Source of the DNA: Deltaproteobacteria bacterium | Lineage (GTDB): Bacteria > Desulfobacterota > Desulfomonilia > UBA1062 | Assembly: GCA_015486075.1 (NCBI GenBank) | Contig: WFSG01000040.1 | Location: forward strand, 4,647-68,646 | Length of the DNA stretch: 64,000 nt | Reading direction: 5' to 3' | Part shown: positions 1,303 through 18,442 of the stretch, piece by piece | How positions within the stretch are numbered: position 1 is the stretch's first letter | Layout: every line of letters starts with the position of its first letter | Notes under the pieces: model-generated | What the model saw: the letters and a program-made list of their open reading frames with translations, nothing else | Databases searched by the model: none | What the model was told of the DNA's origin: nothing | Made by a program: the position numbers and the translations under genes

Positions 1303-1453
1303 TAAAGTGACCTCCTTCCAAGAAGTTACAATACAGATGACACTTATATATCGCATTCTCTGATAAATCCAGAAAAAACCACTGCAGCCTTGACCCTTGC
1401 CATGCCTATAGAGTAATAATAAGCTTACCACAAAATTGAAAGGAGGTTTATCC

Positions 1454-3182: not shown

Positions 3183-4190
3183 TCATGCTACTCTGATCAC
3201 AGCGTTCTGAGTCTCAAGCTCACCCTTCTTCGCTGCAATAAGCACATCACACAGGTCCTCGAGGGGATATACCTTTATAGAGGGCTTCAGGTTGAGCCTA
3301 TCTGCAATCTCAAGGAAGGCAGTTGCATCCTTCCTGTTCACGTTGTATAGTGTCTTTATATCCTTCCCCCACAGGTTTTTACTGTAATCATTGATAACTA
3401 TTTCAGATGAGCTAACCGGTGCAAGGACTAGAGTGCCACCCCTTTCAATAGATGCCAGGGCCAGCTCAACCAGGTTACCTGCCGGGGGAAAGATTATGGC
3501 GGAATCAAGACTATTTGGCATGGTTTCCTTTGTGGCGTCTGCCACCCATGAGGCCCCTGAAAGCCTCGCAGCCTGGATATTCTTCTCAGACCTTGTACTT
3601 ACGTACACTTCAATACCCAGGTATTTAGCCACCTCGAGCACGTAATAGGCGGTCGGCCCAAATCCAAAGATGCCGAGCCTGTCACCCTTTTTAGCACCTG
3701 TCAACACCAGTGAGCAGTATCCTGCTATACCAGGGCACATGAGTGGAGCAATGATCTCCGGTTCCAGGTGCATGTCTCTTAGGGAAAGAGCAAATTGCTC
3801 TTTTATAACCATATACTCGGCATAACCACCATCCGCGTCCCAGCCCGTTGCCTTAAACTCAGGGCAGTAGTTCTCTCTACCTGATGTACAGTACTTACAC
3901 CTGCCGCAAGTACTGTTTAACCAGCTCACACCCACCATGTCGCCCTTCTTGTGATTCATCACGCCTTCACCCAGCTCGTCTACTATGCCCACAACCTCAT
4001 GACCCAGGATTACAGGTGACCTCTTCAGGTCGAGGTCACCTTCTGCAATGTGCAGATCTGTCCTGCAGACCCCGCAGAACAGGTTTTTTATCCTGATTTC
4101 ACCCCTTGATGCATGTGGCTCAGGAACCTCGGCGAGCCTTAGGGGCCTGTTTTCTATCTTGTCCTGCGACTCAAGTAACCATGCTTTCAT
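3183..4190 (-). CDS. zinc-dependent alcohol dehydrogenase (MDR family)
   Basis: Zn-ligand region GHEVVGIV plus CGVCRTDLH; structural Zn cysteines C..CKYC; GxGxxG Rossmann motif; 335 aa. Confidence 0.85.
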   Translation of the reverse strand: MKAWLLESQDKIENRPLRLAEVPEPHASRGEIRIKNLFCGVCRTDLHIAEGDLDLKRSPVILGHEVVGIVDELGEGVMNHKKGDMVGVSWLNSTCGRCKYCTSGRENYCPEFKATGWDADGGYAEYMVIKEQFALSLRDMHLEPEIIAPLMCPGIAGYCSLVLTGAKKGDRLGIFGFGPTAYYVLEVAKYLGIEVYVSTRSEKNIQAARLSGASWVADATKETMPNSLDSAIIFPPAGNLVELALASIERGGTLVLAPVSSSEIVINDYSKNLWGKDIKTLYNVNRKDATAFLEIADRLNLKPSIKVYPLEDLCDVLIAAKKGELETQNAVIRVA

Positions 4191-4194
4191 AGTT

Positions 4195-4700
4195 CAACTC
4201 CTGTATAGGAACATGGCATAAGGCGTAGGGCACAAGGTATAAGGTGTAGGGTATAAGGTTTATGATTCAGGTTCCAGGTGCCAGGTACCAGGCAAATAAC
4301 CTGAAGGCTGACAGCAGAAAGCTGAAAGTTAATCTAAAACTTTGTGCCTTTGTGCCTCTGTGCCTTTGTCCCTATCTTTTAATCTTTGTCCCTTTTCTAT
4401 GCTTTAGCCTAATGCTTTTTGCCTTCCGCCTTAAACCTTATACCCTATACCTTCTATTATTTTTTACCTGACACCCGGTACCTGATACCTGGCACCCTGT
4501 CTTTCCCTACGCCTTCCGCCTTCCGCCTTCCGCCTTAAACCTTGTACCCTACACCTTGTACCTTAAACCTTTTATTATTATATCTTTTCTTTTACTTGGC
4601 ACCTGATACCTGGCACCCGAGACCTTGTCTTCTTTACCTTAAACCCTATACCTTGTACCTTGTACCCTGTACCCCATACCTTGTACCATCTCTTTATACC
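4195..4700. repeat. intergenic heptamer-repeat palindromic element, copy A
   Basis: A purine-rich heptamer array (GGCATAA/GGTATAA/GGTGTAG...) at about 4215-4260, a conserved core at about 4270-4420 (GGTGCCAGGTACCAGGCAAATAACCTGAAGGCTGA...CTTTGTGCC...), and pyrimidine-rich heptamers (CCTTATA/CCCTATA/CCTTCCG/CCTTGTA) out to 4700. An internal inverted repeat pairs GGTGCCAGGTACCAGG at about 4278 with CCTGATACCTGGCACC at about 4480 and 4600. A second copy lies at 7665-8040. Confidence 0.8.
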
Positions 4701-6280
4701 ATCTCTACCCCATACTTTTTATCATCAACTTGCCCACGTCTTAAAACCTTCATGGCCTCTGGAAGGAAATCCATTATGTCCCTGGCAGTCATGCCGTCTT
4801 CACCTTTCTTGCTTGCAGCAAGGTCGCCTGAGAGGCCGTGCATGAATACACCCATCCTTGCTGCGTCCTCAAGTTTCAGTCCAAGTCCAAACATGGCTGC
4901 AATTGTGCCTGTGAGCACGTCACCTGAACCTGCCGTTGCCATGCCTGGATTCCCGGTCATGTTTATGAACATGCTTCCGTCCGGGTAGCCTACAAGGGAA
5001 TGTGCACCCTTTAGCACTATTATGCTATCAAACCTTGAACACGCATCTTTAAGCACCTGTATCCTGTTACCTGTAACCTCACGTATGCCCAGGCCTACCA
5101 GCCTTGACATCTCGCCTGGATGAGGGGTGAGTATGGTCTTTGCCTTTCTCTGCTTCAGGATCTCTGGCTTACTGGATACGGCTGTTATCCCGTCCCCGTC
5201 AACAAGTATTGGTTTTTCAATCTTTAGGACCAGGTCCCTTACAAGTTGCTGTGTCTCCTCATTTAGAGAAATACCAGGACCTATAACCACCATGTCAACC
5301 TTCTCCGAAAGTTCTAAGAGGAAGCTCATGTTTTCCATGGATATGCTACCAGAAGCTGTCTCCTTCAAGGGGACGAAAACAATTTCGCTACCCCTAGTAG
5401 CAACGGAAGATACCATGGAGGCAGGTAGGGCAAGTCTCGAATATCCTCCCCCTGCTCTTAGAAATGACATGGCAGCAAAATACGGCGCACCAAAATAGGT
5501 TGATGCACCTGCTATAAAAAGCACGTCCCCGAAGTCACCCTTGTGTCCGTCGGTAGCCCTTGAAACAAGGCCTACGGGTTCATTTGTCTCCACCTTAAGG
5601 GAATCAGAGTCGTAGAGCGAGGGCGGGAAGGATATGTGAGACACGTAGAGTCTACCGCATAGTTCGTACCCAGGAAAGAGCATGTTACCTATCTTGGGAA
5701 GTCCAAAGGTAACGGTATGATCTGCCCTTACAGCAGTACCCATGACGCTACCTGTATTGCCGTTTACCCCGGAAGGTATGTCTACGCTAAAGACCTTTTT
5801 TCTGCTCTCGTTTATGAGATCTATGGCATCTCTATATATGCCTTCAACATCTCTTGACAGGCCAGTACCAAATATCGCATCAACGATGGCATCCGAGTGC
5901 ATGGTCTCCTTTCTTGCGTCTTCCATGGTAGACTTAGTGCCAACCCTTACAATGTCGATCGCTAGCCTGGATACGATCTCGAAGTTCCTTTTTGCTGCAC
6001 CCTGGTACTTGCCTGGATCTCCAAGCATGAACACCTTGACCCTGCCGCCAGCCGAGTGTATCTTCCTGGCAACAACCAGGCCATCCCCGCCGTTGTTACC
6101 TATCCCAGAAAAGACAACAAACCTCTTTTCCTTTATACCGAGTTCTCTTAGTATAACAAAGTAGACTGCCTGGCCCGCGTTTTCCATGAGTATCTCGTCA
6201 GGTATGCCTAGGTTTTCAATTGCATGCCTGTCCATGGCCCTCATCTGTTCGACCGTGCTTATTTTCATGTCACCCTCCAA
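4694..6280 (-). CDS. nnr: bifunctional NAD(P)H-hydrate epimerase / ADP-dependent dehydratase (Nnr; YjeF-N + YjeF-C)
   Basis: The N-terminal YjeF_N domain carries GIGNNGGDGLVVAR. The C-terminal carbohydrate-kinase-like domain carries GPGISLNEE and a GSGDVLTG motif; 528 aa. Confidence 0.85.
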   Translation of the reverse strand: MEGDMKISTVEQMRAMDRHAIENLGIPDEILMENAGQAVYFVILRELGIKEKRFVVFSGIGNNGGDGLVVARKIHSAGGRVKVFMLGDPGKYQGAAKRNFEIVSRLAIDIVRVGTKSTMEDARKETMHSDAIVDAIFGTGLSRDVEGIYRDAIDLINESRKKVFSVDIPSGVNGNTGSVMGTAVRADHTVTFGLPKIGNMLFPGYELCGRLYVSHISFPPSLYDSDSLKVETNEPVGLVSRATDGHKGDFGDVLFIAGASTYFGAPYFAAMSFLRAGGGYSRLALPASMVSSVATRGSEIVFVPLKETASGSISMENMSFLLELSEKVDMVVIGPGISLNEETQQLVRDLVLKIEKPILVDGDGITAVSSKPEILKQRKAKTILTPHPGEMSRLVGLGIREVTGNRIQVLKDACSRFDSIIVLKGAHSLVGYPDGSMFINMTGNPGMATAGSGDVLTGTIAAMFGLGLKLEDAARMGVFMHGLSGDLAASKKGEDGMTARDIMDFLPEAMKVLRRGQVDDKKYGVEMV

Positions 6281-6416: not shown

Positions 6417-7655
6417 CTAAGGTGTTGTATCAAATGTAACCACAGGCCTATAAAAAAGGTAGCCGTTTTTCATGCCGGACATGATGACGCGCACCACGGG
6501 TATACCCAGGTCCGGGTGCGTCAGGTCAAAGGCGAACACATCGTGACTTAAAGATAGCCTGTCCAGTATGCTTGTAAGATCACACGGATATGGATCCCCC
6601 GCATCTTTTATGGCCACAGGCCCCTTGCACCTGTTTATCCAGAAGTCTTCAGGCACGTATGCACTGTACCTCTCGGGTGGCACCCTGGTCTTTATGTACC
6701 TTACAATGGGCAAATACTGTCTCCTCGTCCTCCACTCGTAGAAGAAAGTGAATGCCCTTTGCTGGACGAGTTCCAGTATTGCCTGGTTAAGGGCTACTCT
6801 CAGGTCTACATGGGAAGCCGTACCCATGAAGAACGTGCGGCAGTACTCATCCCAGGCAGTTGCAGCAACCGAGTAGAATCCTTCGTCAAGGGAGGTATAA
6901 TAGAAGGCCCTCAGACCAAGCCCCTGGTCTTTGAACAGCTCCAGCCAGGTCTCGAAAAAATCGTCACCTTCTAAAGATAACTCAGTCGGTAGAGGTTCAA
7001 TTCCCCTAGAGATCGTGAACTGGAAATCCCTCTCTATCACCTCGCATATACCAGATATTATGGCATCATCCAGCGTGTTACCAGCTGCAAGCCCGTTGGA
7101 AAAGAAGAAACCCAGCCTCCTAGTCTCAAAGCCTTCAAAGGGATAGGCAGAGTCAGGTATATCCATGAGAACAAAGTCAACGGGTATGAATACCTGCCTT
7201 TCATGAAGGAGATCCGTGGCATAATACCACGTGAGTTCCTTGTCCTTTGAATATTCCACCCCTGGTGGCAGATACAATGTCTCTGGGTCCAGGGCATCTG
7301 GCGCAAATTCATTGTACGTCCCAACCTTGATGCGGCCCTCTAGAGGTGTGTAGGATGCAGTGTACCTCTCTATTGCCTCCATGATACAGGAAAGTCTTGA
7401 CTGGTCAGGGCTAAGCCCTTTACCCGAGTGCACGTAGGAGAAGTCTAGGTTACCCCACTCTTTAAGATTGCTGAAATCTACTGAGCCAAGCATGGAGGGC
7501 CTCAAGGTAAGGTGAACAGGGATACCAAGGCTGTCCACAAAGCTTATATCAATGGGATCCACTGCATTTATAACACCTAAGAGGGGCTCCACCCGGCCAA
7601 GGGTAGTTCCGACATCAGCTTTTCTCCAGTATAGTTTGGAATCGAGATTATTCAT
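6417..7655 (-). CDS. ycaO: YcaO-domain protein (standalone; no TfuA or E1-like partner in the window)
   Basis: YcaO ATP-binding signature region GKGLSPDQSRLSCIMEAIERY and a C-terminal ...GIPVVRVIMSG. The start was set at the ATG at 7655 (MNNLDSKLYWRK); the longer ORF-track N-terminus (MYLKPCTLYLVPWALCL) is an in-frame translation of the heptamer repeats. No clear RBS. Confidence 0.75.
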   Translation of the reverse strand: MNNLDSKLYWRKADVGTTLGRVEPLLGVINAVDPIDISFVDSLGIPVHLTLRPSMLGSVDFSNLKEWGNLDFSYVHSGKGLSPDQSRLSCIMEAIERYTASYTPLEGRIKVGTYNEFAPDALDPETLYLPPGVEYSKDKELTWYYATDLLHERQVFIPVDFVLMDIPDSAYPFEGFETRRLGFFFSNGLAAGNTLDDAIISGICEVIERDFQFTISRGIEPLPTELSLEGDDFFETWLELFKDQGLGLRAFYYTSLDEGFYSVAATAWDEYCRTFFMGTASHVDLRVALNQAILELVQQRAFTFFYEWRTRRQYLPIVRYIKTRVPPERYSAYVPEDFWINRCKGPVAIKDAGDPYPCDLTSILDRLSLSHDVFAFDLTHPDLGIPVVRVIMSGMKNGYLFYRPVVTFDTTP

Positions 7656-7664
7656 ATTATAAAA

Positions 7665-8040
7665 GCAGGACATAAGGCACAGGGCCCAGGGTACAAGGTA
7701 TAAGGTACAGGGTTTAAGGTACAAGGTGCAAGGTGTAAGGTACAGAAGACAAGGTTTCGGGTGCCGGGTATCAGGTACCAGGCAAATGACCTGGAGGCTG
7801 AGAGCTAATCTAACCCTTTGTCCCTTTGTGCCTTTTCTATCCTTGCGCCTTCTGCCCTACGCCTTCCGCCTTAAACCTTATACCTGGAACCCGGCACCTG
7901 AAACCCGATATCTGATACCTGTATCTTTTACCTTAAACCCTATACCTTAAACCCTATACCCTATACCTTAAACCCTATACCCTGTACCTTATACCTTGTA
8001 CCCTATGCCTTCCGCCTTATGCCTTATGCCTCTAACCTTA
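7665..8040. repeat. intergenic heptamer-repeat palindromic element, copy B
   Basis: A purine-rich heptamer array (GTACAAG/GTATAAG/GTTTAAG/GTGCAAG) at about 7690-7750. The core at about 7755-7870 is about 85% identical to the core of copy A (GGTGCCGGGTATCAGGTACCAGGCAAATGACCTGGAGGCTGAGAG...CTTTGTCCCTTTGTGCC...GCCTTCCGCCTTAAACCTTATACC). An inverted segment CCTGGAACCCGGCACC lies at about 7883. More than 15 CCYTRYA heptamers follow at about 7930-8040. Confidence 0.8.
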
Positions 8041-8892
8041 CACCCCAAAGTCCCTTACAGGCTTTAATTCTTCCATGGGATAGACCTGACCCTGCTTTGG
8101 AGGCATGGAGTTGTACACCCATTCAATATCAACACTACTAAGATTTATGCCCAAGTGCTTTTCTTCCTTTCTGTAAACACCCCTTACCAGCACGTCCTCC
8201 ATGTCAAGGCTCAGTGCAAAGATCGCGACCTCTGAACCATCGGGTATCCTGGATAGTTCCTCTGAATAGGCAAGTGGAGAGAAAACAAGTCTCGTGCTAT
8301 CTGCAGCCTGGCACTGGAGAACGGGTATTATGGCAGGGAAACCATCGTCATCCACGTACGATAGGAATTTCAATGCGTTCAGGCGGTTGAAAAGGCCTTC
8401 AGCCCAGGGTTTAAGGATGGTCCCGTTGCCATGGGAAGAGAAGGCGCCCTTTGCTAGTTTTGTCATGAGCAATGACAAGGCTATGCTTCCAAGGGGGAGT
8501 TTTTCTTTTCCATAAGTCTCTACCAGGTCCATGTAGTGTATGGTATGGATACCCATGTAGGCATTGTAGCGAAACATTGGTTTCTTATTAAACATCTCGT
8601 ATTCCTTGCCCTCTTTCTCCTCGTGGGTCCATCTGGCTTTGCCGCGCCACAGGTCACGCTTTAACGTCATTATCAAGAAACCTGTGTTAGGGTTAGTCTT
8701 CACGTTCTTCTTGCTCTGGCCCTCTGTAAACTGCCCCCATACGACTTCTGTTGGGGTCCTTGCCTGTAATGCCGTTATAAGCGTTACATGTGGTAGTCCC
8801 TGGGGATTTATTGTTGCCAACAGTCCTACCTTTACCTCAGGTTCGAATTCCTTCATGTCCTCTGGTTCAAACTCCCTTAGTATCTTTTTCAT
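8038..8892 (-). CDS. pyridoxamine 5'-phosphate oxidase-like FMN-binding split-barrel protein (two PNPOx-like halves)
   Basis: About 284 aa with two repeats of a PNPOx-like core (VGLLATINPQGLPHVTLI... / FLSYVDDDGFPAIIPV...). GGAGGATACC lies upstream of the ATG at 8892. Only the fold family is recognisable. Confidence 0.5.
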   Translation of the reverse strand: MKKILREFEPEDMKEFEPEVKVGLLATINPQGLPHVTLITALQARTPTEVVWGQFTEGQSKKNVKTNPNTGFLIMTLKRDLWRGKARWTHEEKEGKEYEMFNKKPMFRYNAYMGIHTIHYMDLVETYGKEKLPLGSIALSLLMTKLAKGAFSSHGNGTILKPWAEGLFNRLNALKFLSYVDDDGFPAIIPVLQCQAADSTRLVFSPLAYSEELSRIPDGSEVAIFALSLDMEDVLVRGVYRKEEKHLGINLSSVDIEWVYNSMPPKQGQVYPMEELKPVRDFGV

Positions 8893-8920
8893 GGTATCCT
8901 CCTTCGCTCTTTAGGGTATT

Positions 8921-9967
8921 TCAAGGAAGATTGCAGCTCTTCACCAGGCGTAGTTTTGGCCCGCTTTCTTCTTTTTCCTTCTCACCCTCCAGCTTTGTAA
9001 GACCTGTCCATACTATTATCGCAGAATTTACTCCGCTTTGCTTGGCCACATGGGCCATAGAATTCATGAAGTCCTTGGTGAGAAGTTCTTTTCCCTTGAA
9101 TTTCCAGTCAATACCAAGCCTTTCGTACTTGTCAACACACATGTTGTTGAAAGAGCATAGTTCCCAGCGGCTCACAACATCTTCCAGATTACTTTTTATA
9201 AACCTGCCTATGCCCTCTATGTTCTCAGGGGTTGCCGTGGCATCCGGTATTATGGGTGTTCTTATCCACATCTCTGAAGGTCTATCATGGTCTTTCATGT
9301 ATTCCCGTACGTATAGTACGTTCTCTAGGATCCTGGCATTGGAATGGCCCGTAAATTCCTGGTGTTTCTTTTCATCTATCTCCTTTATGTCAAATAGTAC
9401 GAGGTCAGTATAGGGCAGCACCATATCAAGTGCCTGCTTAGAGCACATGCCACATGTATCCAATGTTGTATGGAGACCCTTTTCCTTTAGAGCCCTGAAG
9501 AAAGCTGCCACGAACGGCGCCTGTAAAGTGGGCTCACCACCGGAGGCAGTGATCCCACCGCCAGAGTTATCAAAATATGCACGGTCCTTTATCACCTCGT
9601 CCAGCAGATCATCAAGCTTCCATTCCTTGCCTATCATCTCCATTGCCGTCGAAGGACATTCCTCAGTGCATATACCACATGCATCGCAGAGCTCCCTATC
9701 TATAACCATGCCGTCCTTTGTTAGCGTAAGTGCCTGCCTAGGACAGACATTAACGCATGTCATGCAACCTATGCACCTGTTACCCATCCACTGTATCTGG
9801 GGCATGGGAGAAATGGTCTCAGGGTTATGGCACCAGGTGCACTTCAAGGAGCAACCTTTAAAAAACACAGTTGTCCTTATACCTGGCCCGTCTTCAGTGG
9901 ACATGCGCTGTATGTTTGCGACCAAAGCACTCGGTATTCCAGCACTCTTATCCTTTGCCTTTACCAT
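8921..9967 (-). CDS. glycyl-radical enzyme activating enzyme (radical SAM, with two extra ferredoxin-type 4Fe-4S motifs)
   Basis: DGPGIRTTVFFKGCSLKCTWCHNPE (CxxxCxxC), plus CIGCMTCVNVCP and CDACGICTEECP inserts typical of non-PFL GRE activases. It lies immediately downstream of the GRE. Confidence 0.85.
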   Translation of the reverse strand: MVKAKDKSAGIPSALVANIQRMSTEDGPGIRTTVFFKGCSLKCTWCHNPETISPMPQIQWMGNRCIGCMTCVNVCPRQALTLTKDGMVIDRELCDACGICTEECPSTAMEMIGKEWKLDDLLDEVIKDRAYFDNSGGGITASGGEPTLQAPFVAAFFRALKEKGLHTTLDTCGMCSKQALDMVLPYTDLVLFDIKEIDEKKHQEFTGHSNARILENVLYVREYMKDHDRPSEMWIRTPIIPDATATPENIEGIGRFIKSNLEDVVSRWELCSFNNMCVDKYERLGIDWKFKGKELLTKDFMNSMAHVAKQSGVNSAIIVWTGLTKLEGEKEKEESGPKLRLVKSCNLP

Positions 9968-9980
9968 CTACAGATCTCCT

Positions 9981-12503
9981 TTAAAACTTGCTGTGACTTT
10001 CCCTGGCGATTATCTCGTCCTGGAGTTCGCGGCCTATACTTGTGAAGTATGCGTTGTAACCCGTTACCCTAACGAGGAGATTCCTGTAATTCTGGGGGTG
10101 TTCCTGTGCCTCCTTTAACATGCCTGCATCAACCATGTTTATCTGCAGAGATGAGCCACCGTTCTCAGCATATCCTCTCAGGAAGGCCTTAAATTTCTCC
10201 TTGTGATCCGGATCCCTTATAAGGGATGGGTTGAAGGTAATAGTGTGGCTTGCACCGTTGGGAAGGTTACTCAGGTATTCATTCCAGTCACCCTTGCCAT
10301 CCATGACCTTTCCACCAAGTGCCTTACCTACCGAGTTTGCATTGGCCGTGGGTCCATTTATGTCTGCCCCGTTGGATGGGCATATGGCATTGGATAAAAA
10401 CTCGCCTTTTCTCCTTCCATCTGGACTTGCAGGGAGTATAAAGCTATCTGCTATCCAGTAGTTCCAGCTTAGCATGCCTGGCCTGAACTGCCTGTTATTG
10501 CAGTGCGTCTTGTACTTCCATACCTCTCCTGACCACAGGTCCATTACCTTTGTTGCCATCTCGTCTGCCTCGTCGTCATCCCTTCCGTACTTAGGTGCCC
10601 TGTTCTTTGCCTTGGCCTGAAGTACCTCGTGGCCTTCCCAGTTATCTTTAAGTGCATTGATAAGTTCAGCCATGGTGCACTCTTTCTTGTCAAACACCAG
10701 GTACTTTATGGCAAGGAGAGAATCCACTGTGCTTGCAAATGTTACACCCTCAACCGTGGTAAAGAAGAGCTCCGGGCCTCCGCGAGTTACGTCAAGCGCC
10801 TTTTCAGCACAGCCCTTAACAAGGCAGGAAAGATAGGGAGTAGGCGAAAACTTTGTCCTTGCGGCTTCTGATGCCTCAAACAAATCCACGCATTTCTTTA
10901 CTATATATCTAGTTTGTTCCACGTAAGCATCCCAGAATTCTTCCCATGACCTGAACTTAGTTGCATCACCCGTGTCCGGACCATCCTGCCTTATACGATC
11001 CTTTTTACCAGTTATAGGATCAACAAAGGCCACCAGATCCTTGCCACCTGTCAGCGCAAGTTCAACTGCCTTCAGGAGGTTAAGATTGTTATCAACCGTG
11101 CCTGAGCGGTCATTACCTACCATGGTGTTCTCAAGGCAACCAACAGAGGCGTAGTCGTAAACATTATCCTCGTTTATGAGATCCTCTTTACCTGCCATCC
11201 TTGCCTCGCGTAGCATACCTGCCATAGAGCGCTCATCAAAATTCAATAGGAAAGGTGATCCCTGGCTGGTTGATATCATATCAACAACCTTGTCCAAGAG
11301 TTCGTCGGGACTGTTCCTGTGCAGACGTATATTCGGCTTTGGCTCAAGTATGGGAGAGAGCTCGTCTATTACTTCCAGCATTGCAAACGTAAGCTCATTG
11401 GTCATGTCCTTACCGCCTCTACCCAAGCCGGAAAGGCTTATAAGCTGGCCGTAGCCAGACGTGATTCCCTGGTTACCCCCGAGCTTCATCATGGCATCGT
11501 AGGCGGTATTGGCGTGTATCCAGAAACACTTGAGTATCTCCTTACCGAACTCCCTTGTCATGCCATGCTCTATCGAGTGCCTCCAGTAGGGGAGCAAATA
11601 CTGGTCTATTCTACCAAAGGACACGCCAGGTCCAGGATAGTTCTCGTCGCTCATTATAAGCATGTGGTTGAGCCACAGTGCCTGGACCGCCTCCCAGAAT
11701 GTCTCGGCAGGCTCCCATGGAACTTTATCCAGGTTCTTGGCCATTTGTATGAGTTCTTGCTTTCTTTGTTGATCTGTCTCCTTTTCACTGAGCTCCCTGC
11801 ACAGGTCAGCATACTTCTTTGCAAGGTCCCTTGGCATGGTAGCTGCTGTCATCATTGCCCTTAGCTGCTCACCCTTAGGGCCTCTTTTCTCCTCTTCTGT
11901 CAGATTCTCGTATCTCTCCTTAAGGTCAGCGTATATACCCTTGAATCCTATTTTCAGTGCATTTTCGTGGTCTGGTATAATATGGCCTGAAGTGGCACCT
12001 GCATTTCCGTATCCATGGTTATGAAACCACATCAGCTTTGCTCGGGCACCCTGTTTACCATCATATATCATCCTGTCTCGTTCCTTTGCCTCCTGCTCTG
12101 TCCAGCACCTTGATGCCAAGATGTTAAAGCGTGCACCTGCTATGAGATCACCTGGGAGTATCTCCTGCGGCACGTAGTTAACCATGACCTCTTTTATGAA
12201 CCAGGCCCTTCTCTCAGGAAGACTCCACTTCCAAAAATCTTCGTGGAGCTTTACCGGCCTTGCTGCCTGGTATGAAGACGACCTGAATGTCTGAAAAAAG
12301 GTATATGTCTCGGGAACCACGTACCAGCCAATCTCATCAAATAGTACATCCCAAGGTGTGCCTGTTGTCCACGTGGTGAATTCATTGTTCCACTCGCGCT
12401 CAACACCCTTGAAGTAATAATCCCTGAGCCACTTGATCCTCTCGGATAAAGGTCCTGGCTCCTTTAACTTATACATAGGTCTCTTGGCCGTGCTCGTATC
12501 CAT
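9981..12503 (-). CDS. glycyl radical enzyme, PFL2/glycerol-dehydratase-like family, substrate unknown
   Basis: 840 aa. C-terminal glycine-radical motif LLVRVTGYNAYFT; catalytic cysteine region YASVGCLENTM; N-terminal ...ERIKWLRDYY... typical of the DhaB1/CutC/HypD-class of GREs. Confidence 0.85.
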   Translation of the reverse strand: MDTSTAKRPMYKLKEPGPLSERIKWLRDYYFKGVEREWNNEFTTWTTGTPWDVLFDEIGWYVVPETYTFFQTFRSSSYQAARPVKLHEDFWKWSLPERRAWFIKEVMVNYVPQEILPGDLIAGARFNILASRCWTEQEAKERDRMIYDGKQGARAKLMWFHNHGYGNAGATSGHIIPDHENALKIGFKGIYADLKERYENLTEEEKRGPKGEQLRAMMTAATMPRDLAKKYADLCRELSEKETDQQRKQELIQMAKNLDKVPWEPAETFWEAVQALWLNHMLIMSDENYPGPGVSFGRIDQYLLPYWRHSIEHGMTREFGKEILKCFWIHANTAYDAMMKLGGNQGITSGYGQLISLSGLGRGGKDMTNELTFAMLEVIDELSPILEPKPNIRLHRNSPDELLDKVVDMISTSQGSPFLLNFDERSMAGMLREARMAGKEDLINEDNVYDYASVGCLENTMVGNDRSGTVDNNLNLLKAVELALTGGKDLVAFVDPITGKKDRIRQDGPDTGDATKFRSWEEFWDAYVEQTRYIVKKCVDLFEASEAARTKFSPTPYLSCLVKGCAEKALDVTRGGPELFFTTVEGVTFASTVDSLLAIKYLVFDKKECTMAELINALKDNWEGHEVLQAKAKNRAPKYGRDDDEADEMATKVMDLWSGEVWKYKTHCNNRQFRPGMLSWNYWIADSFILPASPDGRRKGEFLSNAICPSNGADINGPTANANSVGKALGGKVMDGKGDWNEYLSNLPNGASHTITFNPSLIRDPDHKEKFKAFLRGYAENGGSSLQINMVDAGMLKEAQEHPQNYRNLLVRVTGYNAYFTSIGRELQDEIIARESHSKF

Positions 12504-12538
12504 AACCCACCTCCCCTTTTGTTTCTACTTGTATTTTT

Positions 12539-13300
12539 CTAAGGCAAGGCTCGGCCTTGTTCGTGTTGGCCAGCCTTCTGTATCGCCTTCTTTAGATACC
12601 TTCTACCATGCTCGAGAAGTTCCTCCATTATGCCAAGTGCCCCGGGCGTATCCTTACATGCTATGGCCAAGACAATGTCTCTGTGATACCCGAATACCCG
12701 GGGTATAACAGATGAATCCTGAAAGAAGCGCCCGGATAGATTCGTGTACACGGGCTTGAAGGACCTAATAAGAAAAGGATAAACTATATTTCCTGAGGCA
12801 AGTGCGATCAGGTGATGAAACTCAAAGTCTATCTCTGTAACTGAATCCACGTCTGTTTTATCAAGCTCCTTTTCTCTCTCTATGATATCATTTAACGAGA
12901 CCATATCTTTTTTTGTCCGGTTCTGGGTAGCAAGCCTCAGCGTCTCCATCTCTACCAGGTACCTCATGTCCAAGAGACTGTCTAAAAGACCGGGCTCGAG
13001 GTCTCCCCTGTAATAATTAACAAGGGAATTGAGTAGCACGAGGGATCCCTCCATCCTGTAATCATTTACCACTGTACCTACCCTGGGCTTCATGGTGACA
13101 AGTCCCTTTGATGCAAGCTCCAACAGACCCTCGTGCACCACTGGCCTGCTCACCCCGAGTTGCAATGCAAGCTCCCTCTCTGATGGCAGCTTTTGACCTA
13201 TCGAGAGCTTCCCAGATAGTATGAGCTCTTCAAAACGTGTTACAAAGACGTCCTTTAGACTCGACCTCTCAATCGGCCTTAACATGTCTTTCATATGCAT
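12539..13300 (-). CDS. GntR-family transcriptional regulator (FadR-like, wHTH + FCD domain)
   Basis: N-terminal GntR HTH (LPSERELALQLGVSRPVVHEGLLELASKGLV) and a C-terminal FCD-like helical domain. It is the first gene of the minus-strand gntR-GRE-AE block. Confidence 0.8.
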   Translation of the reverse strand: MHMKDMLRPIERSSLKDVFVTRFEELILSGKLSIGQKLPSERELALQLGVSRPVVHEGLLELASKGLVTMKPRVGTVVNDYRMEGSLVLLNSLVNYYRGDLEPGLLDSLLDMRYLVEMETLRLATQNRTKKDMVSLNDIIEREKELDKTDVDSVTEIDFEFHHLIALASGNIVYPFLIRSFKPVYTNLSGRFFQDSSVIPRVFGYHRDIVLAIACKDTPGALGIMEELLEHGRRYLKKAIQKAGQHEQGRALP

Positions 13301-13305
13301 CTCCT

Positions 13306-13334
13306 ACTGGCTGGTGGTATTACCACCAGCCAGT
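13306..13334. promoter_or_regulatory. 29-bp near-perfect palindrome with a TGGT-N3-ACCA core; candidate GntR operator
   Basis: ACTGGCTGGTGGTA-T-TACCACCAGCCAGT is read directly at 13306-13334, 6 nt upstream of the gntR ATG and overlapping its RBS. The core TGGTATTACCA matches the GntR/FadR-type consensus (GT-Nx-AC). Confidence 0.5.
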
Positions 13335-13556
13335 ATGCACAATCAGAATTATTATTGCAAGCAAAAAATTGTGATGAGCCTATAAAAACATTAACGCTTG
13401 GCAGTCTTTATGTGCTATAAATAGTCACACTTACTAACATCAGGAAGACTAGTTGACCAGAATACCGTTCACACCATTAGAAAGAAAGATAGTGGGTCAG
13501 CTTCTGTTGCTACAATGTAATTTATCAAACGCACATTCATGCCTGAGGAATATTAT

Positions 13557-16325
13557 ATGAAGCGTAAAAAGAGCATGGCAGGCACGTTCACCTGGATTAT
13601 GTTCATCATGACCCTGGTTCCGGTTGCTATATTCGGTATCGCCTCGATAAGTGTGGAGTATCTCATGGGAGAACGTGAATGTCATGCACTGAGAGAGAGG
13701 TACATAGACTATCAGGAATCTATTGTCAAAAAAGAAGTTCAAGAGGCGGTAAAATACATAGAGTGGCGCAGGGCAAATTCAAGGATACCTCAAGAAGATC
13801 TCAAGAAAGAGATACTAAGATGGCTTTCCATGAAAAGGTACCGATCCCTTGGTAAAGAGGATGGCATCTTCTTTGTAAGAAATTTTGACGGTATACAGCT
13901 GATGAGTGTAAGCAAGCCAGAGATTGTTGGAAAGGACACGTCCAAGCTCACCGATCCTCACGGTATAAACACGCATAGACTTTTCATGGAGGTGATAAAA
14001 AATCCAGACGGTGGTTTTGCCGACTATTCCTGGTACGACCCGTACGAGAAAAGGATTACCCCTAAAAGGACCTTTGTTATGGCTGTTCCCGAGTGGAGAT
14101 GGTACATAGGCTCGGGATTTTGGTTTAACGACATCAATTCTGTTATCAACAAAGAAAAAAGCCGTATAGCACACACCCTAAGTATACAGGCCCTTGCAGC
14201 AATGGGGATAATACTTTTACTTGTGCCCTTTATATATGCGTTGTCCCGCTACATGGCAAAAAGCATTGACAAGAGCATGGCGAGCTTTACAGGCTTCTTC
14301 GATAGGGCCGCGACAGAGCTCACCCGTATTGACGAAAAAGCCATGGATTTCAGAGAGTTTGAGAGGCTGGCAACAAGTGCAAACCGTATGATAAAAGAAC
14401 TAAAGGTTGCCAGGCAGGGGATGGAAGACCTGCAAAGGATAGTAGACCTTAGTCCAATGGTGGCATTTCTGTGCCGTGCAGAGCAGGGATGGCCTGTAGA
14501 GCTTGTATCTAGGAACATCTCCAGCTTTGGGTACAGTCCTGAAGATTTTTATACCGGTAAACTCAACTACGCATCAATCATTCACCCTGACGATCTGGAC
14601 CGTGTCAATGACGAGGTCTCAAGGTTCAGCTCAGAAAAAGGCCGAAAGAGTTTCAGCCACGAATACAGGATACTTACTTCGTCAGGTGAGACACGCTGGG
14701 TGGATGATAGGACGCGTATAAGGAGAGATGCCACTGGCAAGGTTACCCATTACCAGGGCATAATACTGGACGTAACAGAGAGCAGGACAGCACAGCAAAG
14801 GCTGGTGGAAAGCGAGGAAAGGTACCGTACAGTGGTAGAAAACACGCACGATGGCTTGCTCATTGCAGATAATGAGTACCATATAACCTTTGCTAACAAA
14901 CAGCTCCTGAAAATCCTCGGCCGTACCGAAGAAGAGGTAATCGGCCATGACTTCAGGGACTTCTTGGACGAAGAAAGTGTTGGTATAGTTGCAGACCACT
15001 ACATGAGAAGGCAGATGGGTGAGAAAGTAGAGCCAAGGTACGAGTTCAATGTTGAAAGGAAAGATGGAGAGAGAAGGCGGGTCGAGATAAGCTCATCCAT
15101 TGTCCGGGATACGCAGGGTCATATTACGACCGTTGCCCAGCTAATAGACATAACTGACAAAAAACGGCTGGAGGAACAGCTGTTACTGGCACAGAAGATG
15201 GAGGCCGTTGGTACACTTGCAGGCGGTATTGCCCACGATTTTAACAACCTGCTTATGGGTATACTGGGCAATACCTCGCTCATGCTCATGGACATGGATC
15301 CCGACGATCCCCGTTACCAGAGGCTTAAGAACATCGAGCAGGCTGTGCACAGCGGGGCAGAGCTCACCAAGCAGCTCCTTGGCTATGCGAGAGGCGGAAA
15401 GTACGAGGTGAAATCAGCCGATCCTAACGATCTTGTAAAGGGCGCCCTTAACATGTTCGGCAGGACAAAGAAAGAGATAAGCATACATACCATGCTCCAA
15501 GAAGACGTGTGGAATATCGAGGTTGACAAATCGCAGATTGAACAGGTGTTGTTAAATATCTGTGTGAATGCCTGGCAGGCCATGCCAGAGGGCGGCGACC
15601 TCTACATACAGACACAAAACACGGTACTCGACGAGAACTACACCCGGGCCTACAACACGCAAGCAGGTAGATACGTGAAGATATCCTTTACCGATACAGG
15701 CCATGGCATGGATGACGAGACAAGAAAAAGGATCTTCGAACCCTTCTTCACCACAAAGCCAAAGGGGACAGGTACTGGCCTTGGCTTGGCCTCTGCTTAT
15801 GGGATTGTAAAGAATCATGGGGGCATTATAAACGTGTACAGCGAAAAAGGTAAGGGCTCTACATTCAACATATACCTACCTGCCTCGCAAAAGAAGGCAG
15901 TCAAGGAAAGGCTTATTGGAGATGCTATCACGACCATGGGATCAGCTACAATACTCATGGTAGACGACGAGGAGATGATACTAAAGGTTGGTTCTGATCT
16001 ACTCGCCAAGCTCGGCTACAAGGTACTTACAGCAACCAGCGGAGAGCAGGCAATAAACATATACAAGGGCAGGATGAACGAAATAGACCTGGTTATACTG
16101 GACATGATCATGCCCGGAATGAGCGGGCGGGATACATACAAGCGCCTCAAGAAGTTAAATGAAAATGTCAAGGTGCTACTTTCCAGCGGATATAGCGTAA
16201 ACGGCGAGGCAGAGGAATTATTGAGACTCGGCTGCAATGGTTTTATCCAGAAACCCTTCAGTGTAAGGGAGTTGCATGCAAAGACAAGCGAGCTAATAAA
16301 GGGAAAGAAAACCACCAAACCTTAG
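13557..16325 (+). CDS. hybrid sensor histidine kinase / response regulator with periplasmic sensor and PAS domains
   Basis: N-terminal TM segment, a Cache-like extracytoplasmic region and a second TM. Two PAS segments (...HPDDLDRV..., ...[19 protein letters not shown]...). HisKA H-box [13 protein letters not shown]; HATPase N/G boxes ([24 protein letters not shown]). A C-terminal REC domain ([10 protein letters not shown]...[14 protein letters not shown]). The alternative ATG at 13539 lacks an RBS. Confidence 0.85.
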
Positions 16326-16608
16326 CACACATGAGAGATGCATAGTAACAACCATGATATTGCCTCTATCCTGCCCAATCATCCCACCATCTACCAGTCA
16401 TATTTACCATTTATAAGTCAAAGTTTTGACTAAGAATACCCATATCTTGGTCTAATGTATTGATATCACTAGTCCTTCATTCAGGCACGCATATTGCTGT
16501 TTCCTGCAAGTAGGATAGTTGATTGGCATGTACTACATTAACCATTGCTGCTTTTAGCTTAGGGGTAAACATTTCACCCCAATGGGCGGAGCCTAATCTG
16601 TTATCAAT

Positions 16609-17580
16609 ATGCTAGATAATAAAACAGGAAGGATATTTTACATATGCCCTGACTTTGCACCACCATCAGGCGGTGTAAAGAGATTATACACGCATGTCCA
16701 GATACTAAGGGATAACGGTTATGAGGCGTATATAGTGCATTTTAACAAGGGCTTCAGGCCGAACTGGTTCGAGCACTCGGTTCCCATTATATATTTCTCT
16801 GATAACCCGAGCTTTTCTTCAACCGATGTCCTGGTAATCCCCGAGGTGTTCCCCGGATTGATGAAGACACTCAAGGATGTACCCAAAAAGGTAGTAATAG
16901 CGCTAAATCCCCATTCCATATTTCAGAACATGGACACGGGTGAAAACTGGAAAGACTACGGTGTCAGCTGGGTCATGACAAATTCCAGCACCATAAAAAG
17001 GTTTATAGAATGGAGCATGGGCATTGAGAACGTGCTTTTAATAGACACGGCCATTGACCGCCGCATGTTCTACTATTCTCCCGGGTTAAAGGAACTGAGG
17101 GTATCCTACATAAAGAGAAAGGATTCACTCTCTCCAGTTGTTGTGAAGATACTGAGTTCAAGAAAAGATGGTATGCCTCCCGTGGAATACATTAAGATAG
17201 AGAACCTAAGAGTCGAGGACTATGCAGCAATTCTCAGGCAGTCCGAGATATACCTTACCACATCAAGCTTTGAGGGATTCCCCAGGGCCATCATGGAGGC
17301 CATGGCATGTGGATGTATATGTATTGGCTCGGATGGCATATGCGGCAAAGACTATATCATTCCCTCAGGCGACACACAGAACTTCATAAAGGTGGAGTCC
17401 ATGAATTTCATTGAACTCGCAGAACGCATGGAGGAGCTGATCAAGAGAATAGCTAGAAAAGACCCTCTTGTGGAAAGAATCAGGAAAAACGCCATTATTA
17501 CTTCATCAAGGTTCACCGAAGAGGCCGAGAAAGAAAGCGTGCTCAGGTTCTGGAAAACATACTTTGAAGCCATTCAATAA
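16609..17580 (+). CDS. glycosyltransferase (GT4-like retaining fold)
   Basis: C-terminal EX7E-type region SSFEGFPRAIMEAMACGCICIGSDG; 323 aa; first gene of the glycan operon. Confidence 0.65.
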   Translation: MLDNKTGRIFYICPDFAPPSGGVKRLYTHVQILRDNGYEAYIVHFNKGFRPNWFEHSVPIIYFSDNPSFSSTDVLVIPEVFPGLMKTLKDVPKKVVIALNPHSIFQNMDTGENWKDYGVSWVMTNSSTIKRFIEWSMGIENVLLIDTAIDRRMFYYSPGLKELRVSYIKRKDSLSPVVVKILSSRKDGMPPVEYIKIENLRVEDYAAILRQSEIYLTTSSFEGFPRAIMEAMACGCICIGSDGICGKDYIIPSGDTQNFIKVESMNFIELAERMEELIKRIARKDPLVERIRKNAIITSSRFTEEAEKESVLRFWKTYFEAIQ

Positions 17581-17590
17581 GGAGGAAAAA

Positions 17591-18373: not shown

Positions 18374-18442
18374 CTTAGACTCTAGTTATAACCTGGGTAT
18401 GACATCCTAATCTAGAAATCTAGAATCAAATTAATAGCAGAT

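Follow-up and report, generated by a model that had tools for sequence, protein, structure and literature searches.

The locus described here raises the question of which reaction is catalysed by an oxygen-sensitive glycyl radical enzyme (GRE) encoded together with a regulator, an activase and a small protein built from two split barrels, and of what that small protein contributes. The cassette lies in a 64,000-nt stretch of DNA from a Deltaproteobacteria bacterium, the whole of which is called the window below. The reading that we favour, with a probability of roughly 0.4 for the chain as a whole, is that of an autoregulated unit encoding a C–O eliminase GRE that works with an obligate flavin-type partner on a glycerol-backbone substrate. 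Gene order, motifs and the conservation of the cassette are read directly from sequence, and the features concerned are the following.

7665..8031, no strand assigned: repeat-structured intergenic region with heptad/21-nt tandem repeats and ~100-nt imperfect inverted arms
8038..8892, minus strand: partner protein of 284 aa, a tandem split β-barrel of the PNPOx/FMN-binding-protein fold (fold, motifs)
8921..9967, minus strand: GRE-activating radical SAM enzyme of 348 aa (TIGR02494, 309 bits against a cut-off of 174)
9981..12503, minus strand: GRE of 840 aa, from an uncharacterised clade (PF02901, PF01228, motifs)
nt 10056-10070, minus strand: glycyl radical motif R812-V-T-G815-Y of the GRE (RVTGY, residues 812-816)
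nt 11130-11141, minus strand: cysteine loop G455-C456-L-E458 of the GRE
12539..13300, minus strand: gntR, a FadR-subfamily GntR transcription factor of 253 aa (Pfam domains, solved relatives)
13306..13334, no strand assigned: candidate GntR/FadR-type operator, a perfect 14+1+14 palindrome of 29 nt, ACTGGCTGGTGGTA-A-TACCACCAGCCAGT
13348..13375, minus strand: promoter-like site upstream of gntR (consensus scan, 9/12 match)

The genes for GntR, GRE, activase and split-barrel protein run head-to-tail on the minus strand with successive gaps of 35, 13 and 28 nt, which bears out the operon proposed in an earlier, sequence-only reading of this DNA. A scan of 7600-13700 returned no minus-strand site resembling an intrinsic terminator. 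The short gaps, the lack of an internal terminator-like site and the conserved operator argue for one autoregulated transcription unit, which we propose tentatively, under the figure given above for the whole chain. The repeat region borders the cassette at its downstream side. It is a possible transcript end or insulator, and no conservation of it was seen elsewhere in what was checked.

The regulator has the architecture of the FadR subfamily of the GntR family, an N-terminal GntR winged helix with an all-helical FCD/FadR_C effector domain, and all three Pfam scores exceed GA (PF00392 64.7, PF07729 62.8 and PF07840 46.6 bits). Public gene calls place its start two codons further downstream, giving 251 aa. 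Its closest solved relatives, at 58-74 bits to solved structures, are the Rv0494/FadR chimera 9wfi and E. coli FadR; FadR and Rv0494 are acyl-CoA sensors. FadR proper was rejected (NF003444 75 bits against 189, TIGR02812 73 against 249), and every NCBIfam equivalog falls below its cut-off, including the top matches NanR, LldR, PdhR and GlcC. With FadR and Rv0494 the regulator shares its domains and a palindromic TGGTnnnACCA-type operator that overlaps its promoter region; it differs from them in scoring below the FadR equivalog cut-offs and in that, within the 64-kb window, TGGTWWTACCA occurs in exact form only at the candidate operator of the cassette's own promoter. The palindrome immediately precedes the gntR ribosome-binding site and carries the core TGGTAATACCA at 13315-13325, of the TGGT-N3-ACCA type found near promoters under FadR-subfamily control; binding by the GntR protein is predicted. 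In ~43 of 52 distinct homologous loci gntR is preceded, at a distance of no more than 130 nt, by a TGGTWWTACCA box, and of the 53 unique sites in 2.0 Mb of related loci at least 30 are at gntR. Situated 14 nt upstream of the palindrome, the promoter-like site comprises a -35 element ATCACA, a 16-nt spacer and a -10 element AATAAT, a consensus match that suggests its function. A regulatory step supported by this phylogenetic footprinting is that the FadR-like repressor would bind the palindrome, which lies just past the -10 element, and be released by an acidic or acyl-CoA-type effector. The earlier claim of GntR control is thus strengthened by the conserved operator, but gntR lies upstream on the same strand in just 42 of 76 loci (~55%).

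The GRE combines a PFL-like barrel with a glycyl radical domain (PF02901 414 bits, GA 24.3; PF01228 73.7 bits, GA 22.2), and the GCLE region and RVTGY motif noted before are present at 455-458 and 812-816. C456 aligns with the catalytic cysteines of glycerol dehydratase (GDH, C433), HypD (C434) and CutC (C489). C456-L-E458 is invariant in 27 family members and places the enzyme in the 1,2-eliminase/isomerase class, the CxE motif being kept in all GRE eliminases and isomerases (PMC13450708). His174 aligns with GDH His164 and HypD His160, a position occupied by Asp in CutC and by Gln in IseG. The N-terminus, earlier called DhaB1/CutC-like, is instead clade-specific, and alignment to PDB relatives starts only at residue ~170. 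Further marks are the clade-specific loop N288-YPGPGVS-295 and an insertion at 730-743, invariant in the core family and missing from other GREs; the active-site elements are poorly modelled in the AF2 model. The cognate radical SAM activase typical of the superfamily is encoded nearby (TIGR02494). It has a CX3CX2C motif (39-46) and, as described before, two extra ferredoxin-type CX2CX2CX3C motifs (65-75, 94-104), and scores below the cut-off of all NCBIfam substrate-specific activase equivalogs. By homology, the activase with SAM and its [4Fe-4S] clusters would put a radical onto Gly815. The radical would then move to Cys456, which would take hydrogen from the substrate carbinol carbon, while Glu458 would deprotonate the carbinol hydroxyl and His174 protonate the oxygen leaving group on the adjacent carbon, a 1,2-elimination (dehydration or C–O cleavage) yielding a carbonyl product. 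Taken alone, regulation, activation and catalysis as outlined are probable, and the best reading of the GRE is a new clade of C–O-cleaving eliminase with an obligate flavoprotein-type partner.

Comparison with characterised enzymes places this clade apart from each of them. Every NCBIfam equivalog score is below cut-off, at about one third of it. HypD identity was rejected (375 bits against 1100, NF043068; the prolyl amine-holding Asp278 aligns with G291/P292), as were CutC (312 against 1050, TIGR04394; His174 occupies the Asp216 position after the conserved strand β1 Gly), the sulfonate GREs IslA/IseG/HpsG/HpfG (357-363 against 1000; HpfG 363, HpsG 358) and PFL (TIGR01255 82 against 994, NF007437 276 against 1109; a single Cys in GCLE and no adjacent Cys-Cys). 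The B12-independent glycerol dehydratase was likewise rejected, the PFL2/GDH subfamily model TIGR01774 giving 416.6 bits against 678.2. Among the glycerol-binding residues of GDH, H164 alone is kept; H281, S282, Y339, D447 and Y640 align with P292, G293, G352, V470 and L678, positions at which loop lengths differ and shifts of ±1 are possible (S295, Y351, D471). The Arg/Gln/Arg sulfonate-binding triad of IslA/IseG and their kin aligns with A170, H174 and G676. Apart from His174 and CxE, residues at the substrate-contacting positions of GDH, HypD, CutC and IslA/IseG differ, and with equivalogs so far below cut-off no exact match to a characterised clade is seen. The claim that the GRE falls outside such clades is upheld, also by clustering at 50%, where the family is isolated and characterised-type GREs all lie at 31-36% identity.

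Partial likenesses are nevertheless informative. Clostridium butyricum DhaB1/DhaB2 (PDB 1R8W/1R9D) likewise pair a PFL2-type GRE bearing a Cys-x-Glu loop with a three-cluster activase, His174 aligns with the His164 proposed to donate a proton to the leaving hydroxyl, and glycerol kinase and glycerol-3-phosphate dehydrogenase genes adjoin some cassette loci and one sister clade. However, DhaB1 scores ~323 bits in the profile alignment, its H281/S282 are replaced by a YPGPG loop two residues longer, and the split-barrel protein stands in place of a DhaT-type Fe-ADH. HypD (PDB 6VXC/6VXE), the best equivalog match and the best single-sequence match in the PDB, whose top relatives reach 303-362 bits, shares CxE and the His, and its Ser334 aligns with Thr348. 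In its pathway a dedicated reductase, ProC, acts after the GRE dehydration, much as in the GRE and flavoprotein pair proposed here, but Phe340, Tyr450 and Thr645 are replaced by Leu354, Asn473 and Trp680, Asp278 by Gly/Pro, and a conserved ProC is absent from cassette loci. The C–S lyases and dehydratase that act on 2,3-dihydroxypropanesulfonate (DHPS; HpsG, HpfG) and isethionate (IslA/IseG) are eliminases of the same class. Since DHPS corresponds to glycerol-3-phosphate with a sulfonate in place of the phosphate, they show by precedent how a C3 diol with an anionic group can undergo elimination, although cassette loci have no sulfite-reduction or sulfonate-transport neighbours.

Relatives of the GRE number 176 in species-representative genomes, all of them MAGs among the 80 loci listed. 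The activase gene lies downstream of the GRE gene in 70 of 76 loci, the partner gene is present in 68 of 71 GRE loci (96%) and, reciprocally, a GRE gene lies upstream of the partner gene in 40 of 43. The conserved unit is the GRE, activase and split-barrel protein, without gntR. This triad is kept, often with overlapping genes, in sister clades at 41-57% GRE identity that include the Asgard archaea Thor- and Jordarchaeales, and the pairing ranges from sediment bacteria to these archaea; the partner of a 50% sister is 34% identical across both barrels and retains the C-terminal motif. Overlap of the partner gene with the activase gene is seen in archaeal loci L177, L178 and L179, of which L178 and L179 encode one and the same protein. 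In L022, L059, L060 and L167 no activase gene intervenes, and the partner gene comes straight after the GRE gene or overlaps it. Sister P0242 keeps the partner while its GRE is missing the catalytic Cys, and the 10.8 kb read at this locus, beginning 260 nt upstream of the gene, contain no activase. More than 100 GRE clusters at 72-92% identity include none with a specific functional name; generic names are pyruvate formate lyase family, formate C-acetyltransferase and (JGI) trans-4-hydroxy-L-proline dehydratase. In the literature we found no characterisation of such a system, and no such split-barrel partner is among those listed in a June 2026 GRE review. Pairing with a double-barrel flavin-protein-like partner is not described for the GRE superfamily.

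The partner has a PNPOx-like superfamily fold with two FMN-binding-type split barrels (N-barrel ~10-126, C-barrel ~162-261). Its earlier description as a dual-PNPOx-like flavoprotein stands for the two barrels, while flavoprotein status is suggested at the level of fold and motif; flavin, F420, heme or no cofactor could be bound. The N-barrel has a conserved cofactor-type motif (T27/G32/P34-H35 with S60-K61-K62-N63). The top structural match is HupZ, which binds heme, and other relatives include D. vulgaris FMN-binding protein and flavoredoxin. Pfam gives a weak match to PNPOx_N only, and no recognisable NAD(P)H site was found in the protein. PdxH identity was rejected (no PdxH model match in NCBIfam, where the sole match is TIGR03618 at 20 bits against 79, and no PNP_phzG_C in Pfam). 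Identity is 7-17% to small FMN-binding split-barrel proteins (D. vulgaris FMN-bp, GSP26/COG3871, HupZ/HutZ, F420-dependent FDORs, PdxH); the FDORs compared are mycobacterial. Unlike these, the partner joins both barrels in one chain as a pseudo-dimer whose second site seems degenerate, and it has a family-specific invariant loop KPMFRYNAY and an invariant tail W258-VYNSMPPxxGQxYP-272. Loop 104-112 and the tail are invariant yet of low pLDDT, and look like docking elements. HPAD-γ, BSS-β/γ and MASS-β/γ/δ are also small proteins encoded beside a GRE and needed for function, some gating the substrate channel or glycyl radical domain. Known GRE small subunits are, however, HiPIP- or rubredoxin-like Fe/S proteins restricted to HPAD, BSS and MASS (PMC13450708), that is, to decarboxylases and X-succinate synthases, whereas the partner, in which one Cys is conserved, consists of tandem FMN-binding-type split barrels and accompanies an eliminase-class GRE. 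From fold and genomic context, our preference, held at somewhat less than even odds, is that the partner is obligate, probably carries one FMN-type cofactor in the N-barrel, and works with the GRE on the substrate or on the reactive carbonyl product, which it would reduce or handle, and that it possibly docks through its C-terminal tail.

The gene neighbourhood narrows the substrate in part. As claimed before, substrate-defining partners are absent: across homologous loci the cassette shows no conserved association with a BMC shell protein, a small Fe-S subunit, a dedicated transporter or an acid-activating enzyme. Metabolic genes that recur beside the cassette are few, and they encode glycerol kinase, glycerol-3-phosphate dehydrogenases, lipase-like hydrolases and acyl-CoA ligases. 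In 6 of 118 dereplicated groups (Desulfobacterota-type MAGs and Chloroflexota) the immediate upstream or divergent neighbour is a true glpK, Chloroflexota loci have glpD and a lysophospholipase-like hydrolase nearby, L005 has gpsA, and Smithellaceae loci have FadD with or without a PlsC-like acyltransferase. The window itself holds a FadD-type ligase, and in Jordarchaeales a carboxylesterase gene follows the triad. Sister P0248, with the same H / YPGPG / GCLEN / GTVD / LSWN signature as the cassette GRE, lies inside a glpK / glpA-like / DUF1667 operon that also encodes a fragment of the GpsA C-domain and a PNPOx_N protein. Such neighbours occur at a minority of loci, the majority of neighbourhoods being unrelated housekeeping genes. 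Together with a regulator akin to acyl-CoA sensors, they favour a glycerolipid or glycerol substrate over an organic acid. Loss of GDH H281/S282, Y339, D447 and Y640 means that plain glycerol is not clearly favoured, and a phosphate ester is weakened since no conserved Arg/Lys was identified at the sulfonate-binding positions of IslA/IseG/HpsG. On this genomic context we tentatively suggest that the substrate may be a glycerol-backbone compound from glycerolipid breakdown, such as glycerol, glycerol phosphate or a glyceryl ester/ether.

Organic-acid catabolism, proposed earlier, had been drawn from the regulator type, and the recurrent neighbours point elsewhere. A module for an organic (hydroxy-)acid or amino-acid-derived metabolite such as glycerate, a hydroxy-amino acid or a hydroxylated N-heterocycle, sensed by an FCD-type GntR and with the flavoprotein reducing a keto/imine product as ProC does after HypD, is unlikely. 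Carboxylate sensing is common in FCD/FadR-type GntR regulators, in line with the sub-cut-off matches to NanR, LldR, PdhR and GlcC, and HypD is the top single PDB and equivalog match, yet the amine-holding Asp278 of HypD is replaced by the G291/P292 loop and a conserved transporter or acid-activating enzyme is absent. GltS, glutamate dehydrogenase, NrpR, M24 peptidase, amino-acid ABC transporters or ProC do lie near some loci, but this is largely lineage-linked synteny because NrpR, GluDH and B12-rSAM appear together in one set of related loci, whereas the glycerol/lipid signal is met again in different phyla as well as in a sister clade with an identical active-site signature. Very improbable is a divergent orthologue of a characterised GRE (glycerol/propanediol dehydratase, HypD, CutC, IslA/HpsG/HpfG, YbiW/PflD) with an incidental partner: fold class and CxE are shared, His174 is common to GDH, PDH and HypD, and glpK adjacency in some loci is compatible with a glycerol dehydratase, but the low equivalog and subfamily scores, the distant PDB relatives, the isolation at 50% clustering and the retention of the partner at 96% of loci argue against it.

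It is a closer, if still rather unlikely, alternative that the split-barrel protein is part of the radical machinery rather than a metabolic enzyme, either as a dedicated FMN electron donor reducing the activase [4Fe-4S] or as a novel type of GRE accessory subunit gating radical installation or substrate access. Flavodoxin is the electron donor to PFL-AE and BSS-β a gating accessory subunit. The partner co-occurs with GRE and activase irrespective of surrounding metabolism, its gene directly follows or overlaps that of the GRE in four loci, and its kin include small electron-carrier-type proteins; its docking-like invariant segments and the invariant GRE surface insertion at 730-743 are also consistent with such a role, as is the overlap of its gene with that of the activase in L177 and L178, which an activase-linked role explains as well as a metabolic one does. 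To our knowledge, however, no GRE system encodes its own flavin donor, and the known small subunits are of other folds. P0242 retains the partner despite its lost catalytic Cys and with no activase in the locus read, and GRE clusters usually encode product-processing enzymes.

Beyond the favoured chain, in which the partner handles substrate or product, a bolder and doubtful reading is that the triad represents an unrecognised two-component glycyl radical system of anaerobic bacteria and Asgard archaea, with an integral flavin/heme partner and a reaction new to GREs on a glycerol backbone, for example one in which glycerol phosphate or glyceryl ethers/esters lose phosphate or alkoxide and yield hydroxyacetone. 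If so, the partner would inject or withdraw an electron, making for a net redox GRE reaction, or would dock to capture a reactive product. Such a system would provide an oxygen-independent route to lipid head-group or ether-lipid breakdown.

The glycyl radical enzyme (GRE) of the cassette is best read as an eliminase; its apparently obligate partner, a split-barrel (PNPOx-like) protein, belongs to a class without precedent among GRE systems. The cassette itself is real and was accurately observed from the sequence alone: gntR, GRE, activase and PNPOx-like ORFs follow one another on the minus strand within 8038–13334, separated by gaps of 35, 13 and 28 nt, and domain searches agree with the identities assigned to all four proteins.

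13306–13334: candidate operator, a perfect 14+1+14 palindrome with core TGGTAATACCA, directly upstream of the gntR ribosome-binding site
12539–13300, minus strand: gntR, ORF with GntR and FCD/FadR_C domains
9981–12503, minus strand: GRE, 840 aa, with PFL-like (414 bits) and Gly_radical domains
8921–9967, minus strand: activase, 348 aa, TIGR02494 GRE activase at 309 bits (cut-off 174)
8038–8892, minus strand: PNPOx-like protein, 284 aa, with a weak PNPOx_N match in the first half of the protein

Both GRE motifs are present, GCLE at residues 455–458 and RVTGY at 812–816, as are the CX3CX2C motif and two CX2CX2CX3C motifs of the activase. The GRE N-terminus had been read as DhaB1/CutC-like, which does not hold at the sequence level: residues 1–170 match neither the Pfam model nor any solved GRE.

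The motif TGGTWWTACCA has one exact site in the 64-kb window, the box at gntR, and a regulon search of the window returned no second. A promoter-like element, ATCACA-16-AATAAT, precedes the palindrome by 14 nt. Of 52 distinct homologous loci, about 43 have the box upstream of gntR and within 130 nt of it, and the position at gntR accounts for at least 30 of the 53 unique sites across 2.0 Mb of related loci. Its form is that of a FadR-subfamily operator, and the nearest solved relatives of the regulator are Rv0494 and FadR. Being unique in the window, conserved, site-enriched and FadR-type, the box is supported in an operator role. No terminator-like site interrupts the minus strand across the four cassette genes and, together with the palindrome data, this makes autoregulated co-transcription of the four genes via a putative GntR operator well supported. 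Divergent from gntR, a hybrid sensor histidine kinase with sCache/dCache, two PAS, HisKA-HATPase and receiver domains is encoded on the plus strand (13539–16325). Six dereplicated locus groups have related PAS-HK-receiver hybrids flanking the cassette; Spirochaetota are among them, and there the hybrid is co-oriented with and upstream of gntR. The kinase gene is followed by a sugar-nucleotide/glycosyltransferase cluster unrelated to the cassette (16609–21304), with genes for a glycosyltransferase, an NTP-transferase, an epimerase/dehydratase, a dTDP-sugar isomerase and methyltransferases.

The GRE falls far under all NCBIfam equivalog cut-offs, scoring 375 bits with the model for trans-4-hydroxy-L-proline dehydratase (HypD; cut-off 1100), 363 with HpfG (1000), 358 with HpsG (1000), 312 with choline TMA-lyase (CutC; 1050) and 276 with PFL (1109); TIGR01774, the PFL2/glycerol-dehydratase subfamily, gives 417 against a cut-off of 678. 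A library clustered at 50% identity holds about 7,000 relatives at E≤0.001, among which the family is isolated: one full-length representative is 66% identical, a few sisters at 41–50% share the N-terminal ~170 residues, and the remaining GREs are 31–36% identical and align only from about residue 165. Substrate-contacting positions were mapped by family-profile search against the PDB. Cys456-x-Glu458 is kept, and His174 aligns with His164 of B12-independent glycerol dehydratase (GDH) and His160 of HypD, a position held by Asp in CutC and Gln in IseG. In contrast, GDH His281/Ser282 and HypD Asp278 give way to an invariant loop, N288-YPGPGVS, that is two residues longer; GDH Tyr339, Asp447 and Tyr640 align to Gly352, Val470 and Leu678; HypD Phe340, Tyr450 and Thr645 to Leu354, Asn473 and Trp680; and the sulfonate-binding Arg/Gln/Arg triad of IslA, IseG and HpsG to Ala170, His174 and Gly676. 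The sequence-only reading had left the substrate open unless the active site matched a characterised GRE exactly; no such signature is matched in this alignment, and that position therefore stands. Modelled by AF2 on 27 aligned sequences, the GRE has a mean pLDDT of 69.9, with active-site strands, Cys loop and glycyl domain all below 50. A June 2026 review covering all characterised GREs and all accessory subunits holds nothing resembling the clade or its partner (PMC13450708), and targeted literature searches found no account of either; the benzene-activation, TRIP_1 and Pelobacter papers proved unrelated. No GRE has been reported with a partner of this split-barrel, flavoprotein-type class.

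Public MAG and metagenome contigs also contain the exact GRE protein, protein clusters at 72–92% identity number more than 100 and carry generic names only, and the family comprises thousands of sequences that share 67–92% identity across Desulfobacterota, Spirochaetota and Chloroflexota. Species-representative genomes yielded 176 relatives, and the best 80 of the 176 loci were examined by tblastn, with loci having room for the gene as denominators. These best 80 are all MAGs, at 67–91% identity, from Syntrophaceae/Smithella, Desulfobacterales, Spirochaetota/Leptospirales, Anaerolineae, Dehalococcoidia, Binatia and others. Among them the activase lies downstream of the GRE in 70 of 76 loci, the split-barrel gene is present in 68 of 71 (65 after the activase and three directly after the GRE) and gntR is upstream of the GRE in 42 of 76. 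The reciprocal search, from the partner in metagenome contigs, finds a GRE upstream in 40 of 43 loci. Partner loci lacking a GRE (L121–L124 and L132) belong to a single lineage, in which a fragment of an IS1595 transposase immediately precedes the partner gene, and are uninformative about the pairing. The invariant core is GRE, activase and partner, and GntR is an optional regulator. Across 118 dereplicated locus groups only the four cassette genes are widespread (92, 88, 80 and 45 groups), every other neighbour gene occurring in at most 10; the cassette is self-contained because only its four genes recur widely. Identities of 67–91% across several phyla suggest its horizontal spread. The earlier interpretation was largely right, with the unit now sharpened to GRE, activase and split-barrel protein, spanning Bacteria and Asgard archaea. 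Several seemingly recurrent ORF clusters from crude ORF calling have no Pfam match and look like artefacts antisense to the GRE or activase genes.

Five further genes of the window were considered as core operon members and rejected, as none recurs in that capacity with the cassette in other lineages.

6417–7724, minus strand: stand-alone YcaO, best NCBIfam match the methanogen McrA-glycine thioamidation YcaO (146 bits, under cut-off)
4694–6280, downstream of the cassette: bifunctional NAD(P)HX epimerase/dehydratase (Nnr), not recurring beside the cassette
3183–4190, downstream of the cassette: Zn-dependent alcohol dehydrogenase, not recurring beside the cassette
1436–3097, downstream of the cassette: long-chain-fatty-acid-CoA ligase (FadD-type), over its NCBIfam subfamily cut-off
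73–1455, downstream of the cassette: MFS transporter, not recurring beside the cassette

YcaO, here in a MAG that appears to be deltaproteobacterial, is not conserved beside the cassette in other lineages, has no TfuA among its annotated neighbours and is also set off by about 380 nt of repeat-rich spacer. This spacer (7665–8031, between the PNPOx-like and YcaO genes) consists almost wholly of degenerate 7-nt/21-nt tandem repeats of TACCCTA and GGTACAA types in two ~100-nt arms, 71–80% complementary, that could form a very long imperfect hairpin, perhaps a terminator, insulator or REP-like element. Because of this repeat spacer the listed YcaO TTG start (7724) is probably wrong; in public gene calls the protein begins about 23 codons later and has 412 aa.

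Every partner, whether it has one barrel or two, conserves the residues T27, G32, P34 and N63 together with a VY...(P)PxPG tail at the C-terminus. Core-family partners have an invariant tail, W258-VYNSMPPxxGQxYP, and an invariant loop, KPMFRYNAY, both of low confidence in the model; this combination is typical of segments that become ordered on a ligand or partner. We favour a role in which the split-barrel protein would act jointly with the GRE, on either the substrate or its reactive product, possibly docked to the GRE and replacing the microcompartment or Fe-ADH that accompanies other diol-type GREs. Under the main rival it would belong to the radical machinery, whether by supplying electrons to the activase as its dedicated FMN donor or by serving as an accessory subunit of a new kind; the overlap of partner and activase genes in the archaeal loci L177 and L178/L179 fits this rival. 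However, an overlapping tandem split-barrel gene also follows P0242, a 50% identical sister GRE (L167/L168) with GFHE in place of GCLE and RIFGQ in place of RVTGY; its product is 34% identical across both barrels with the tail motif kept, and the 10.8 kb read of this locus contain no activase gene. Retention of the partner beside a Cys-less GRE-like protein, in a locus without activase, fits the favoured GRE-linked role.

Other sister contexts extend the pairing. The P0399 locus reads GRE-activase-PNPOx_N with a 139-aa single-barrel partner, and Thorarchaeota (L177) and Jordarchaeales (L178/L179) encode GRE, activase and tandem PNPOx in overlapping genes. Sisters P0245 and P0248 have the signature H / YPGPG / GCLEN / GTVD / LSWN in common with the window GRE, and P0248 homologues are largely from Asgard archaea, Abyssubacteria and Dehalococcoidia. 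The sister-clade contexts show a GRE/split-barrel pairing that would be older than the core GRE family. None of the archaeal PFL-like GREs has a known function (PMC13450708). In L174, listed with Asgard-archaeal contigs, the triad sits within a bacterial-type glpK / glpA-like / DUF1667 operon. Four more sisters, P0246 (L171/L172), P0247 (L173), P0253 and P0261, have the clade-specific N-terminus but neither Cys loop nor glycyl radical domain, P0246 and P0247 adjoining an activase-like radical SAM gene and Fe-ADH; with P0242, these degenerate sisters could be pseudo-enzymes or non-glycine radical enzymes. In 13 loci (L019, at 14461–16830, L030, L043, L091, L092, L133, L134, L137, L140, L143, L144, L153 and L165) the split-barrel gene is immediately followed, in the same orientation, by the gene for a second, different PFL2-type GRE. 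This second GRE has ~790–824 aa (1004-aa ORFs in L030, L091 and L092) and is ~31% identical to the first GRE; the four tested, from L019, L137 and L153 plus a differently placed L016 paralogue, fall under all equivalog cut-offs. The sole activase seen in these loci is that between first GRE and partner, and a single activase and partner may serve both uncharacterised GREs.

We propose that the activase would install a radical on Gly815, from which a Cys456 thiyl radical would abstract hydrogen from a carbinol carbon, with Glu458 deprotonating the hydroxyl of that carbon and His174 protonating an oxygen leaving group on the adjacent carbon. The predicted outcome is a 1,2-elimination to a carbonyl product, as for GDH, PDH and HypD (PMC13450708). 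Most cassette neighbourhoods are unrelated. Those metabolic genes that are found repeatedly beside it in independent lineages form a coherent set. L005 (which also has gpsA), L010 and L154 each have a genuine glpK, scoring over its equivalog cut-off, immediately upstream in the same orientation, and the Chloroflexota/Dehalococcoidia loci L061, L064 and L084 combine divergent glpK with a lysophospholipase-like hydrolase and glpD; glpK is a minority signal, at 6 of 118 locus groups. Smithellaceae loci encode FadD-type acyl-CoA ligases, either alone or alongside a PlsC-like acyltransferase; the window has its own at 1436–3097, and this ligase type recurs beside the cassette in Smithellaceae and Chloroflexota. 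P0248 is encoded within a glpK / glpA-like / FAD-oxidoreductase / DUF1667 operon, accompanied by a GpsA C-domain fragment and a PNPOx_N protein, and a carboxylesterase is next downstream of the Jordarchaeales triad. An organic acid had been suggested as substrate; the recurring neighbours and the FadR-like regulator point to glycerol/lipid metabolism instead, and gene context favours a glycerol-backbone compound from glycerolipid turnover. Against a plain reading of this, the glycerol-binding residues of GDH are not kept, and the window GRE offers no obvious candidate for a phosphate-binding Arg/Lys.

GREs perform chemically hard anaerobic reactions, and entire clades are without assignment. 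The family described here is large, and its wider superclade extends to Thor- and Jordarchaeales with the split-barrel partner nearly always present. The conserved operator and compact four-gene unit make the system amenable to heterologous expression. If the partner acts in catalysis or activation, the known architecture of GRE systems would be extended; if the substrate is a glycerol-backbone compound, the cassette would represent a widespread route of anaerobic lipid/glycerol turnover in sediments, peat and digesters.
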